From Eledone cirrhosa (lineage: Eukaryota), in assembly GCA_964016885.1 (NCBI GenBank), contig OZ024742.1, positions 55,862,001 to 55,926,000 of the forward strand: a stretch of 64,000 nt of DNA, read 5' to 3'. Positions within the stretch are counted from its first letter, which is position 1, and every line of letters starts with the position of its first letter. This document shows, piece by piece, positions 7,335 through 59,330 of the stretch. Made by a program: the position numbers and the translations under genes. The notes beneath the pieces were generated by a model that saw nothing but the letters and a program-made list of their open reading frames with translations, searched no databases and was not told the origin of the DNA.

Positions 7335-8580
7335 TTAAAAGAATAGAGGTGTAACACACGAGTTGTCATATATTAGTAAAAGGAAAAGAAAATGCTGACA
7401 ATTTGTTCCCAGTGAAAAATAGTTTAATTAGGAATAAGTAAAAATTAGTAATAAGTATTGGTTAGTATTCAGTTTTAGTTTTAAGTTTTTACCGGTTGCG
7501 CATTTCGAATGCTTTTCAAAAATAATTTTAAGAGAGAGCGCCCGTGATGTTTGCTCTAATCTGATCAGTTTTGGAAATTCTACCTGTTTTATGTGAAAAA
7601 AGTGGCTCGAGAGGTATTAAGATTTCGTTGGTTGTTGAATGTTACGTGAATGAGTACTATAAGTTTCGCGCCAATTCGTGTTGCAAAAATTCTTGTAGTC
7701 AAAACAATTTTGATTGGTCGGTAGAGGTCACGTGAATGTTAAAAATTGATTTTGCCCCAAATGTAGGTTTGTCGAAGAGTGTCCTTTTTCGCCTGATTGA
7801 GAAGTCACTGAAAAATAAGTCTTTTAAGACAAATATATGTGTGTGTGTGTGTGTGTAGTAAAGAGGTTCATTGTTGTGATAATGGTCAGTAGGGATGTGC
7901 GAGTGAATTGCAGTCATGTTGAAAGGTCAACAGTTCAGGTGTCTATTAAGACAAATATGTGTGTGTGTGTGTGTAGCAGAGTGATTCGTGGTAGAGGGAT
8001 TCGGTCAGTAGGAATGTGTCTGTACGTGTGTGGGAGATATTTTAACATGTTGAAAGATATTTTTCAGCTCTTGTCTTATACGGAGAAGTGTGTGTGTATA
8101 TGTCTGTTTGTATGTTAGTGTACGCGTGTGTATGTGTGTGTGTATATGTGTGTGTGTGGGGGGGGGGCAGTATTTTTGTGATACTGGTAAAAATGGTGTA
8201 CATTATTCGATATTTTCACAAATTTGCAAAAACAATTCACTCAAAAGAACATCAAAAACATTAATAATAAAAGGAGTGAAATGATATATAGTATTGTCAA
8301 AACACCAAGGTGTGTGTGAGTGTCTAGATTGTACGTACTGCAAGGGGAATCCGTTAGGCCCTGCCGTATGAGAATTTCCAAAACTGATCAGATTAGAGCA
8401 AACATCACGGGCGCTCTATCTCAAAATTATTTTTGAAAAGCATTAGAAATGCGCAACCGGTAAAAACTTAAAACTAAAACTGAATACTAACCATTACTTA
8501 TTACTAATTTTTACTCATTCCTAATTAAACTATTTTTCACTGGGAACAATTTGTCAGTATTTTCTTTTCCTTTTACTAAT
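7335..8580 (-). mobile_element. Neptune-like PLE 3' end/pseudo-LTR with inverted partial copy (8375-8580), flanked by (TA)n
   Basis: Homologous to 56125-57100 and 59395-60430; 8375-8580 is the reverse complement of ~7370-7577. Confidence 0.85.
8430..8466 (+). ncRNA. Degenerate minimal hammerhead-like motif of the Neptune-like family (also at 7486-7522 minus, and at 56.3 and 59.2 kb)
   Basis: tttt-TGAAAA-GCATT aga AATGC-GCAA-CCGG-TA-aaaa: the stem II hairpin and palindromic stem III are kept, but the core deviates from CUGANGA/GAAA. Confidence 0.4.
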
Positions 8581-8599
8581 ATATATATATATATATATC

Positions 8600-9035
8600 T
8601 AAGGCGGGTAAAATTCCCGAGATCCATGGACGAGTTCTCTCCAGCGGTCTCTGTCCCTCATTATCGCTGCCATGTCCTGCGTCTCCAACAGACCAGTGTC
8701 TGTCCTTAGGGCATCCACATACGTTAACTTGTTGAGTCTATGCTGCTGTATGGGTCTGAGACTTGGACACTGACCAAGAAAGTCACTCAGATGGTGGATG
8801 GGTGCTACACGAGAATGTTGAGGATGGCTCTGAACATTAATCAGTATACACTGAGGATGAAAAACTCAGAGCTGTATGGGAGCATCCCAAAAGTCAGCTC
8901 AAAAGTGACACAGAGGAGACTGAAGTTAGCTGGACATGCTCACCGATTTCCAGAGTTGACATTGCACTCAGTGCTCCTTTGGGAGCCCCTACATGGACAC
9001 ACTAGAAGAGGAAGACCAAGATTAACGTATGTTGA
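8600..9035 (-). mobile_element. RTE-clade LINE 3' end with a 5' inversion
   Basis: 8730-9035 (+) encodes LLYGSETWTLTK..RRLKLAGH..LWEP.HG..RRGRPRLTYVD. 8600-8726 (-) continues LTYVDALRTDTGL..MRDRDRWRELV to a stop. (TA)n on both sides. Confidence 0.85.
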
Positions 9036-9093
9036 TATATATATATATATATATATAAAGAAGAAATTAAAAGATGGTTAAAAGAGTTCCATA

Positions 9094-9163
9094 TATTTTA
9101 TTATGCACATTTCGAATACAAATTCATCCTAAGACATAAATTGTGTTCTCATCAGATAAAATA
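9094..9163 (-). ncRNA. Type I hammerhead ribozyme
   Basis: UAUUUUAU-CUGAUGA-GAACACAA..UUGUAUUC-GAAA-UGUGCA-UA|AUAAAAUA: 8-bp stem I and intact core. Confidence 0.75.
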
Positions 9164-55928: not shown

Positions 55929-56043
55929 GCATGCTCCGAAGATATGACTGTTTATAATTTTGTATTGGCGATCGAGTAACGCGAAAATAAGCGAATAGCG
56001 ATCTCTAGACCTACCAGCTCAGTGAAACAAATGTAAGCTATGT
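55929..56043 (+). ncRNA. Hammerhead copy in the inverted pLTR
   Basis: Reverse complement of 52380-52494 with a few substitutions. Confidence 0.6.
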
Positions 56044-56124
56044 GATTAAAACTTTTTTGTATAGCAAACCATGTCAACCTTCTTTCCTGATTTATATATA
56101 TATATATATATATATATATATATA

Positions 56125-59100
56125 TTTAAAAAATAGAGGTGTAACACACAAGTTATGATATATTGGTAAATGGAAAAGGAAATGCTGACAAATTGTTCAC
56201 AGTGAAAAATAGTTTAATTAAGAATAAGTGAGAATTAGTAATAGTATTGGTTAGTATTCAGTTTTGGTTTTAAGTTTTACCGGTTGCGCATTTCTAATGC
56301 TTTTCAGAAATAAATTTGAGATAGAGCGTCCGTGATGTTTGCTCTAATCTGATTAGATTTGGAAATTCTACCTGTTTTTATGTGAAAAAAAGTGGTTCCA
56401 GCTGTATCAAGATAAGTTTCGCGCCAATTCGTGTTGCAAAAATTCTTGTGGTCAAAATAATTTTGATTGGTCGGTAGTGGTCATGTGAATGTTAAAAATT
56501 GATTTTGCGCCAAATGTAGGTTTGTGTCGGCTGATTGATAAGTCACTGAAAAATAAGTCTTTCAAAACAAATATGTGTGTGTGTGTGTGTGTGTGTGTGT
56601 AGTAGTAGTAGTAAAGGGGTTTGTTGTTGTGATAATGGTCAGCAGGGATGTGTGTGCGAACCGCAGCCTGTTGACAGTTCAAATGCCTATTAAGACAAGT
56701 GTGTGTGTGGGGGGGGCGTGTGTGTGTGTGTGTGTGTAGCAGAGTAATTCGTGGTAGAGGGATCGTCAGTAGGAATGTGTCTGTAAGTGTGTGTGGGATA
56801 TTTTAACATGTCAAAAGATATTTTTCAGCTCTTGTCTTATACGGGGGAGTGTGTGTGTGTGTGTGTGTGTGTGTGTGTATCTCTCTTTGTATGTTAATAT
56901 ACGCGTGTGTATGTGTGTGTTTATATATATATGTGTGTGTGTGTGTGTGTGTGTGAGAATGTCTGTGTGTGTGTGTGTGGGTGGACCAGCATTTATTTTT
57001 GTGATATTGGTAAAATGGTGTACATTATTCAATATTTTCAGTAAAAACGATTCTCTCAATAGTGTGAAATGATATATAGTATTGGCATAATACCAAGGTG
57101 TGTGTGAGTGTCCACATTGTACATATTGCAAAGGGAATCCATTAGGCCTTGCCGTATTGGAATACTTGTGTACAAATATGTATGTGCCCATCAGTGTGCA
57201 ATGCATGTGTGCGTTTATGTATGTGTGTGTGTCGGCACGTTTATATCTATAGACATCAAAAGGTATGGAAATTTGTGTATATTTGTGTTGCACCATAGAA
57301 CATGTGTGTTTACGTATGTTATTGTGTTTATATGTGGATAGAGATGTATGCTCATGTAGGTTTGCATGTTGGCGTGTGTATGTTGTGGGTTCGTCTTAGG
57401 GAGAAGTGTTTAGACGGGGTCCGTATTTGTTAATAAAGTAAGATTCCTTGCTGATGTGCTGGGTGTGGGTGGCATTATCTTTAAATTTGTAGGGGGGAAA
57501 GATTCTGAAGTTCGGATGATTTTGGGCGGCACAGGTATCAATGTGTTCACTCAGTGCTATTTCCTGTATTCCCGTATTTTAATTTGGGATCTATGGACAG
57601 TCATGCGTTGGCGGAGGCTGTTTTTAGTCTGGCCTATGTATTGTTCTCGACAACCTGAGCAAGTTAATACATATATTAGATTTTCTGATGCGCATGTGAA
57701 ATTGTGTTTTACTATATAACGTTGACCTTCTTTGAAATAGAATTCCGAACCCTCTATTAGGTTGATGCATATGCCACAGTTGGGTCTATCGCATTTTTTA
57801 CTGTGGGTTTCGTTGGGTGGTTGGCAATACTTTAACATGTGTTAGGATGTTTTGCATTGACTTACATTGTCTTTTGCTCTTTATAATATCGTGTGTTCGT
57901 AGGATTTGGTTCATTCTATGGTTCTTTTTCAACACAGGGATGTTCTGAAGGATGGTGTCAAAGGCCTCATTGTTGAGGGGTTCTGTGTGGAGATGTATGG
58001 AAGAGCTTTTAGTTTCGGTTGATTTACTTTAGGGTGTCTAAGGTCCTGGGTACTGAATTTTAGGGCACGTTGGATTCCATTGCCAATTAGTGATTCAGGG
58101 TAGTCCCTGCCTATGAATGTGTCCTTTAGTTCTTGTAGCCGAGAGTAGCAGGTGTTTTTATTGGAGACTATAGTACAGATTCTCTTGGCTAAGTTGTAGG
58201 GAATGTTAATTTTAACGTGTCTAGGGTGGCAAGAGTTGAAAGTAAGATATTGTTTGGAGTCTGTGGGCTTGTAGTGTATGTCTGTTTCTATTTTTTGTTA
58301 TGGCTCTTAATGAGGATGTCGAGGAAGGGCAGTTGTTGATGGCTGTATTCCATCGTGAAGTTAATATTCGTGTTGAGCCCATTTATAAGGGTGTAAAATT
58401 CTTTAAGTTCCTCGATGTTTTCGTGCCAAAGGATGAAGCAGTCATCTAGATATCGCTTCCAGTTCCTTTCTATGTGTACGTGGAGAGTGTTTCCAAATTT
58501 GTTTAGGACTTTAGTGTAGAGGGTGATTTCCAGGTATCCCATGACTAGGTTGGCATAAGTGGGGGATGTTTTCGTTCCCATAGCGGTCCCAGATTTCTGC
58601 CTGTAGGGTTTGTTATTGAAAACGAAGTAATTGTTCTCAAAGATAAATTTGAGTCCCTCTATCACGAATTCTTTTTTGATGCGTTGTGGGAGTTCATTGT
58701 GGTAATTATCCAGCCAGAATTGGATAGCTTCTATTCCTAGGTTGTGGGGGATGTTGGAGTATAGTTTGACTACATCGAACGTCACTAGTAGGTTTTGTTC
58801 AGAAAGGGGCATATTGGGGAGGTGATTGAGCATATCTAGGTCGTCCCTTCACACACATCCCTGCTGACCATTATCACAACAACGAACCTCTTTACTGCTA
58901 CTACTACACACACACACACATATTTGTTTTGAAAGACTTATTTTTCAGTGACTTCTCAATCAGCCGACACAAACCTACATTTGCGCAAAATCAATTTTTA
59001 ACATTCACATGACCTCTACCGACAAATCAAAATTGTTTTGACCACAAGAATTTTTGCAACACGAATTGGCGCGAAACTTATCTTAATACCGCTGGAGCCA

Positions 59101-59330
59101 CTTTTTTCACATAAAAACAGGTAGAATTTCCAAATCTAATCAGATTAGAGCAAACATCACGGACGCTCTATCTCAAAATTATTTTTGAAAAGCATTACAA
59201 ATGCGCAACCGGTAAAACTTAAAACCAAAACTGAATGCTAACCAATACTATTACTAATTCTCACTTATTCCTAAATAAACTATTTTTCACTGTGAACAAT
59301 TTGTCAGCATTTTCTTTTCCATTTACCAAT
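56125..59330 (-). mobile_element. 5'-truncated Neptune-like PLE with an inverted pLTR (58848-59330)
   Basis: Degenerate RT-EN at 57395-58846; 56160-56657 is the reverse complement of 58850-59330. Confidence 0.92.
57395..58846 (-). pseudogene. Neptune-like RT, Zn-finger linker and GIY-YIG, frameshifted
   Basis: LVTFDVVKLYSNIP; QKSGTAMGTKTSPTYANL; WKRYLDD; LPFLDI; CDRPNCGIC; NLIYVLTCSGCREQYIGQT..LRQRMTVH. Confidence 0.92.

Follow-up and report, generated by a model that had tools for sequence, protein, structure and literature searches.

Penelope-like elements (PLEs) of Eledone cirrhosa form foldbacks in (TA)n tracts: two inverted arms face each other and one of them runs out through a tail. 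The window, which is the whole 64,000-nucleotide (nt) stretch analysed (contig OZ024742.1, positions 55,862,001 to 55,926,000, assembly GCA_964016885.1), lies within a 3.0-Gb assembly. The outer end of the tailed arm is designated L and the inner, tail-less end S; LS, LL and SS denote the combination of ends in a pair of arms. The foldbacks pair one L with one S end near-strictly. The ends are fixed, both sites are internal to the element, twin hairpin motifs accompany them in Hydra-clade families, and the two arm lengths are independent. Read from the genomic sequence, this organization probably reflects an insertion in which a single RNA is reverse-transcribed from both nicked strands of the target, each strand priming at its own hairpin-marked AU site, and the two complementary DNAs (cDNAs) are then joined.

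The pairing rule was measured in 1.664 Mb, consisting of the window, a total of 400 kb of sequence flanking it and, taken from three other contigs, six blocks of 200 kb. The mining of (TA)n-flanked inverted repeats, which an earlier note on this DNA had proposed, was run on this sequence with 40 references in 34 groups, picked by hand via an asymmetric copy per family; automatic family clustering was dropped because non-PLE repeats were mixed in. The short end was fixed, and the inward-facing pairs comprised 128 LS, 6 LL and 4 SS out of 138 (103 LS and 1 LL when both ends were TA-bounded). Among non-reference pairs with an arm identity of at least 0.8, 82 of 87 were LS versus 49.8% expected from end frequencies (binomial p=2e-19). 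The exceptions are mostly unrelated neighbours or internal tandem junctions, and most symmetric candidates inspected by eye were either asymmetric with an internal TA run or not PLEs. In family N, for which three genome-wide searches were made, the first biased to tailed arms, all 25 pairs are LS. Its 98 distinct termini fall at reference base 1 (40), base 33 (47) or bases 3-30 (11), so that 87 of 98 lie at one of two bases. Both Neptune copies of the window end at the same base, as had been claimed.

The two kinds of end occur at similar frequency (189 L vs 211 S), and both are also found unpaired (74 vs 88). Because about 119 foldback pairs stand beside 162 unpaired TA-bounded ends in the chosen families, foldbacks are routine, as had been proposed, and not obligatory. 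Of 15 unpaired family N arms inspected by eye, seven tail-less and three tailed ones had TA on both sides. The TA tracts outside L and S ends did not differ in length (median 22 vs 28, p=0.095, n=120) and thus lend no support to the addition of TA by the reverse transcriptase (RT) at one end.

The tail end is not where the element stops. In tandem-junction copies, family-fixed sequence continues past it up to the start of the open reading frame (ORF), 30-95 nt on. Pattern searches for the tail end followed by non-TA sequence recovered a family-fixed continuation in families N, R, A, G and K, and continuation is also seen in F, Q, X, I and C. For example, 20 of 24 fetched family N junctions continue to the ORF ATG about 30 nt on, and in families A, R, G, J and K the ATG lies roughly 50-95 nt past the tail end, counted by eye. 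Since the element runs on into the ORF, L and S are internal sites of the 5' untranslated region (UTR). The earlier proposal that one strand primes at the RNA 3' end is therefore unsupported, unless the RNA is processed at the tail end. Both sites are AU-rich. At S, 22 of 34 families have 4 or more alternating A/T letters in a row, versus 15% of control positions, which upholds the claim of a short end fixed at an AU-rich motif rather than scattered.

Many short copies also share an inner end. It lies at one position in 32 of 34 copies of family A (within 52-63 nt of S), 12 of 36 of family B and 7 of 13 of family N. The mode in these three families coincides with a predicted initiator-like base, and a TATA-like box precedes it by about 30 nt. 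The pile-up fits an RNA that is primed within its 5' UTR and copied until the cDNA runs off the RNA 5' end. Hammerhead cleavage was considered as a cause of the family A truncation hot spots and was unsupported, no core being seen there.

Many tails begin with a predicted bulged hairpin in which an upper stem is stacked on a basal stem of 4 bp, the loop is free and the 3' side carries a 2-nt bulge. A strict descriptor of this hairpin was fixed ahead of examining the last three sequence blocks, which served as hold-out. Of 55 hold-out elements, 23 had the hairpin next to their S end by this descriptor, versus 0 on the opposite strand, 0 in the arm interior and 0.2 in shuffled sequence; in the discovery set the count was 34 of 98 versus 1, 0 and 0.3. 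A relaxed descriptor separated poorly (36/55 vs 16-24/55 in controls) and was rejected, leaving the strict one as the only discriminating form; whole-tail folding z-scores were mixed. A second hairpin motif lies 6-9 nt past the L end in nine families. Family N is laid out differently from Hydra: at its junctions L251-L274 8 nt of the tail and 8 nt shortly past the L site are complementary to each other, so that the L site would sit in the loop of one large hairpin.

The twin arrangement recurs in Hydra-like relatives with 35-46% identity, represented by 77 metagenome loci. In 45 of these, 53 hairpins matching the preset descriptor lay upstream of the ORF and 8 lay inside it, and 16 loci had at least two. 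With a descriptor adjusted after viewing the sequences, at least two hairpins preceded the ATG in 30 of 44 loci versus 4 of 175 ORF control windows, and the spacing between hairpins was 55-92 nt in 28 of these 30. In hairpins defined by their end sequences only, with relatedness not controlled, the first upper pair forms in 78 of 80 with the 2-nt 3' bulge versus 1 of 80 without it. Pairs 2-4 form 116 times versus 65.5 in shuffles, above all 1000 of them (maximum 83), and ten hand-picked aligned hairpins include three pairs with a compensatory change. TA-bounded ends lie 6-11 nt ahead of hairpin 1 or 2 in 6 of the 7 metagenome loci with an upstream copy, 10 further TA tracts having no such copy. 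An Rfam search of 20 of the 77 loci at the gathering threshold gave no family match for the twin hairpin, only two Hammerhead_1 matches. The twin hairpins of the Hydra-clade 5' UTR may constitute an undescribed cis-acting RNA element conserved across distant relatives, each hairpin docking one subunit of a dimeric RT-endonuclease and setting one priming site; we regard this assignment as evenly balanced.

The arms of a foldback end independently of each other at their inner sides. Among 120 of the 128 LS pairs, the tailed arm is longer in 34, the tail-less arm in 32, the two are near-equal in 40 (near-palindromes) and 14 are unresolved, individual calls being open to distortion by later insertions. 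Young copies still include longer tail-less arms, as at 20235-21700, where the arms measure 66-70 nt and the tail-less left arm is the longer one. At arm identities of at least 97% the tailed arm is longer in 14 pairs and the tail-less arm in 10 (one a duplicate), and longer tail-less arms occur at 98-100% identity with spacers of 1.2-2.6 kb. The proposed mapping of central-junction microhomology was run on 45 junctions, of which 33 gave data; 10 with values of -6 or below were set aside, and the 23 clean ones have a central overlap of -4 to 7 nt, at least 3 nt in 8 of them. Partner arms share 121 of 141 two-arm variants versus 10.5 by chance, which points to one source copy for both arms or to conversion between them, and their subfamily labels agree in 36 of 37 pairs. 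At the 5' junctions of three solo family N copies (L166 near 1689, L184 near 1403 and L169 near 1656), fold-backs of 10-35 nt are seen, some enclosing the target TA.

In the mechanism proposed, a two-subunit RT-endonuclease would bind both hairpins, folded at the RNA level, and each 3'-OH of the nicked target would pair with an AU motif located 4-11 nt before a hairpin. Displacement of the inner cDNA by the outer one would follow, and the two cDNA 3' ends would join with an overlap of 0-7 nt. Use of a single primer would give a solo copy with either end, and priming so near the RNA 5' end would give short copies that terminate by run-off where transcription starts. The pairing rule also holds in Neptune- and Nematis-like families, where the repeated signals differ. 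The twin-priming interpretation in the earlier note is supported in part, by the fixed AU-rich short end, the independent inner extents of the arms, the short central overlap and the commonness of foldbacks; priming at the RNA 3' end is not supported, and the twin hairpins had been overlooked.

Several observations weigh against the two-primer model. For these elements themselves, the model draws on genomic DNA. As many as 32 of 55 hold-out elements lack the strict hairpin, and many of the 55 come from families already seen. Families A and R are the only ones in which RNAfold recovers the second hairpin; that of G, J and K has an upper stem of 1-2 bp and is not the minimum-energy fold. Families N (Neptune) and C lack the bulged hairpin altogether and instead repeat a short AU motif at both sites. 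The S-site alternating run is only 2-3 in 12 of 34 families, G-U versus A-C counts (10 vs 7) leave the folding strand undecided, and the family J pattern search forced the first four hairpin letters. The central overlap is clean in only 23 of the 45 junctions tested, and the partner is the nearest arm in only 61 of 96 cases; shared variants could reflect conversion. Because families were chosen through an asymmetric copy, wholly symmetric ones could be under-counted. One true LL palindrome exists, at 3493-3891 of block H2 (within L211); it is a perfect family N palindrome in which each arm has a tail. Its centre is a natural palindrome located where transcription is predicted to start, and it possibly represents a minor snap-back route. 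Finally, the start sites reported in vitro by Frangieh et al. are non-homologous to the cut DNA and do not differ between strands, according to the available passages of PMC11167929.

Two RNAs from the same source could instead be held by an asymmetric dimer, with one subunit assigned to L and the other to S and no strand displacement needed. Strict pairing, independent arm lengths and shared variants would be explained equally well. Near-identical hairpins 55-92 nt apart on one RNA are better suited to two subunits on one molecule, however, and nothing obvious bars both subunits from using the same hairpin on two RNAs, which makes this arrangement unlikely. A slightly more doubtful possibility is that self-priming or fold-back initially yields a DNA hairpin whose strands are afterwards cut by the endonuclease at L and S, the motifs acting as DNA. 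This would give strict L plus S pairing with either arm longer, and it is in keeping with the requirement of the D. virilis tail for endonuclease recognition (as cited in the available text of PMC11167929), with the 40 near-palindromes among 120 elements and with the unsettled folding strand. Solo copies with either end would then require a second pathway, in vitro reverse transcription starts from nicked target at two tail-bounding sites (PMC11167929, passages available), and many of the near-palindromes are located at the predicted start of transcription, a point at which run-off would be expected for each of two cDNAs.

Snap-back synthesis is improbable. Here a cDNA primed at the tail end would fold back and copy itself until the AU motif anneals to the target, longer tail-less arms being later central deletions; shared variants, small loops, the AU match and an LL palindrome centred on a natural palindrome would all follow. 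It predicts that the tailed arm is never shorter, whereas the tail-less arm is longer in 32 of 66 resolved elements. Its simple form fails because a tail-less first cDNA cannot acquire a tail by folding back, and the form with later deletions is largely refuted by the arm-length counts. Tail-less solos are as common as tailed ones, and snap-back offers no reason for a hairpin copy at S. That the foldbacks are artefacts of assembly or of chimeric reads, or elements that happen to lie side by side in a TA tract, is scarcely credible, given 0-20% arm divergence within an element, base-fixed ends, varied central junctions without a TA tract and the same layout in published accounts of other animals; the finding that no listed contig or restriction-site-associated DNA (RAD) read spans a central junction with 31 letters per side (7200-8700 and 36930-37120) is uninformative.

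Parts of this anatomy are published. Inverted pseudo-long terminal repeats (pseudo-LTRs) with a tail on one of them and a (TA)n preference are described in the accessible sections of PMC3846280 and PMC8557442, in agreement with the earlier note. These accounts and that of Schostak et al. 2008 (PMC2377424) share the head-to-head copies, the (TA)n preference and partial tandems. The tails in the sections consulted are 30-40 bp, often at one end only, and reach 168 nt here; unlike in those accounts, one-of-each pairing is here measured as near-strict. Self-priming was suggested by Arkhipova et al. 2013 (PMC3846280) and endonuclease-mediated resolution by Craig et al. 2021 (PMC8557442), where the available text treats the origin of PLE inverted repeats and the one-sided tail as an open problem.

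The closest experimental system is PAc, a Poseidon-clade PLE of Anolis, which in vitro cuts and extends both target strands and starts reverse transcription at two internal RNA sites bounding the tail (Frangieh et al. 2024, PMC11167929). The AT-rich target, an RNA stem-loop at the start site and a predicted dimer are further likenesses in the passages at hand. It differs in that its start sites lie inside the ORF; here they lie in the 5' UTR, usually match (TA)n and have a hairpin each. The available PAc text contains no pairing rule, inverted-insertion model or repeated hairpin, and it leaves the later insertion steps unvalidated. Likewise, the passages and supplement text of Craig et al. 2021 available for PMC8557442 do not mention twin 5' UTR hairpins. 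The literature examined further included PMC4209133, PMC2377424, PMC8969392, PMC5737381 and the preprint 10.64898/2026.07.22.740005; in this open full-text material, in the parts accessible and with figures and subscription papers outside its scope, the pairing rule, a twin-priming model for PLEs and the twin hairpins were not found. The anatomy, the fixed short end, the two start sites and two-strand extension are thus published, and the near-strict pairing, the internal tail end and the twin hairpin as candidate cis-element are new relative to this literature.

The model recalls twin priming of LINE-1. Ostertag and Kazazian are said to have proposed in 2001 that the second nicked strand primes a second cDNA and that microhomology joining of the two gives an inversion. 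The independent inner extents of the arms are reminiscent of this, as are the 8 clean junctions out of 23 that overlap by 3 nt or more, the priming itself being invisible in genomic DNA. In LINE-1 the second site is reportedly opportunistic and another part of the RNA is copied; here the sites are fixed and adjacent and the same sequence is duplicated. A LINE-1-style first primer at the RNA 3' end (poly-A) does not apply, the element running on into the ORF.

If the two-primer model is true, the PLE tail is the spacing between two protein-binding hairpins, every double-primed event yields one tailed and one tail-less arm, foldbacks are programmed twin priming on one RNA, and analogous repeated signals would be expected in other PLE clades. 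The pairing rule and two short, mutable hairpins make end formation directly testable in the existing assay format, and the hairpin motif is a practical marker for PLE boundaries in annotation. Because telomerase and the PLE RTs are sister groups, an RNA element that determines where copying begins bears on the evolution of template positioning.

Within the window, arms were found by self-BLAST, repeat finding and arm alignments (Table 1). All ten foldbacks listed in the earlier note have inverted arms and a one-sided extension of 32-168 nt, and in nine the short side abuts (TA)n directly or lies no more than a few bases from it. At 46150-46315 the rule holds in part: the five extra nt TTTCG intervene, so the short arm does not merge into the tract. 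The listed arms were confirmed and some outer bounds moved: the tail of the element given from 20240 runs to about 21700 rather than 21640, that of the element given from 39087 to about 39507, the tail placed at 34430 begins near 34384 and the element placed at 34210 near 34201. The list was incomplete, missing 9055-10500 and 25646-25947. The arms of 38797..39036 extend to about the predicted transcription start, and the tail of family R is long because the loop of its first hairpin is expanded.

Table 1. PLE foldbacks of the window and features within them
Feature	Position	Strand	Details
Neptune-clade foldback, family N	7335..8584		arms 7368-7581/8371-8584, 97%; tailed arm left, tail-less right
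33-nt tail of family N between S and L sites	7335..7367	-	
Asymmetric foldback, J-like family, absent from earlier list	9055..10500		tail on right
Hydra-type foldback, family M	20235..21700		arms 20235-20304/21472-21541, 99%; 159-nt tail right
First predicted bulged hairpin of family M tail, 4 nt past S site	21546..21579	+	read from sequence
Asymmetric foldback, absent from earlier list	25646..25947		
Near-palindromic foldback, family C	26107..26642		arms 26163-26642; 56-nt tail; 14-nt loop; Nematis/Neptune-like linker
Old short foldback related to family A	34201..34351		arm span 34284-34351, weak alignment; 83-nt tail
Predicted hairpin in tail of 34201..34351	about 34255-34278	-	
Hydra-type foldback, family M	34384..37271		arms 34526-34772/37025-37271, 96%; 142-nt tail
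GIY-YIG ORF fragment inside 34384..37271	35956-36531	-	
Predicted hairpin of 34384..37271	about 34483-34516	-	
Short Hydra foldback, family A	38797..39036		arms within 38797-38959; 77-nt tail
Predicted hairpin in tail of 38797..39036	38965-38988	+	
Foldback with 66-nt tail on right	39083..39507		arms 39083-39152/39380-39441
Predicted hairpin at tail start of 39083..39507	39442-39477	+	
Short foldback, partial fit	46150..46315		arms within 46242-46309; 92-nt extension; no canonical hairpin
Hydra foldback, family R	52160..56095		arms 52328-53230/55191-56095, 905 nt, 98%; 168-nt tail; 5-nt central overlap
ORF fragment inside 52160..56095	53313-54911	-	
First predicted bulged hairpin of family R, expanded loop	52255..52323	-	read from sequence
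Neptune foldback, family N	56126..59334		arms 56158-56656/58850-59334; 32-nt tail left
Predicted TATA-like/initiator-like start, family N; 5'-truncated copies pile up there	56345..56382	-	

The elements have the layout of endonuclease-positive (EN+) PLEs, because tandem units (3542 and 3894 bp), inverted 5'-truncated arms and optional tails are present. Pfam matched RVT_1 at 58291-58848 (E=7e-8) and GIY-YIG at 35959-36531 (E=4e-4, below the curated cut-off). It gave no match on the full Hydra ORFs of two natural units, L280 and L283, whose intact open frames of 784 and 710 aa carry YRDD and Y[IF]GxT; L280 is an intact 3542-bp tandem unit of family A, a family otherwise consisting mostly of 110-130-bp foldbacks. 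The Hydra clade is marked by RWK/RWR and DKT, a CxCX5C linker, CxxC and CxH, with no CX2-5CxxC, in the accessible part of Craig et al. 2021 (PMC8557442). Family A has RWR, DKT, CxCX5C, CxxC and CxH, family R has RWK, DKT and the remaining motifs, and family J lacks only RWK within the frame read, that motif lying further upstream. Together with the C-terminal GIY-YIG and the (TA)n target, these motifs place families A, J and R in the Hydra clade as described there; M, G, S, I and K are putative members by the endonuclease motif only. Family N is assigned to the Neptune clade because its window translations contain CDRPNCGIC, CSGC and two His, corresponding to a CX2-5CxxC linker ahead of GIY-YIG and to an internal CCHH, and its copy at 56126..59334 has a broken RT plus GIY-YIG ORF on the minus strand. 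Family C, with a CX4CxxC linker, YVDD and CCHH-like residues, fits Neptune/Nematis-like linkers.

Hammerheads had been said to face outward in both arms. This holds for 34526-37271, where a core lies at 37187-37217 (+) and cores face outward because the arms are inverted copies; in 26163-26642 the core (26321-26349) is in the left arm only, the right arm having an 18-nt deletion there. The best 150 of 159 Rfam matches in the window include no hammerhead, only microsatellite-driven miRNA-type matches below gathering scores. Hydra families mostly have hammerheads in the available text of Craig et al. 2021, and family A shows no core. Among the metagenome loci, a hammerhead core lies 45-80 nt upstream in 27 of 77, and Rfam Hammerhead_1 passed in only 1 of 20. 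Hammerhead-like cores of the form CCGA(U/A)GA, not CUGANGA, occur in families M and R at 34384-34620, 52328-52560 and 20235-20330.

Further family N copies lie at 12871-14217 and 59385-64000, one beginning in the TA tract where 56126-59334 ends, and a later pair at 59427-64489 was scored LS. Older, decayed inverted repeats not listed earlier are found at 2606-2940, 6711-7006, 12663-12813 and 48161-51734. An open frame of 161 aa at 33423-33908 (-) is unrelated to PLEs and has no Pfam match. Two Hydra-type copies at 1016-2134 (+) and 21685-22806 (+) are truncated at the 5' end. They carry a GIY-YIG motif at the C terminus and long linkers rich in Asn and Gly, which recall the N-rich inserts reported, in the passages available, for rotifer PLEs.

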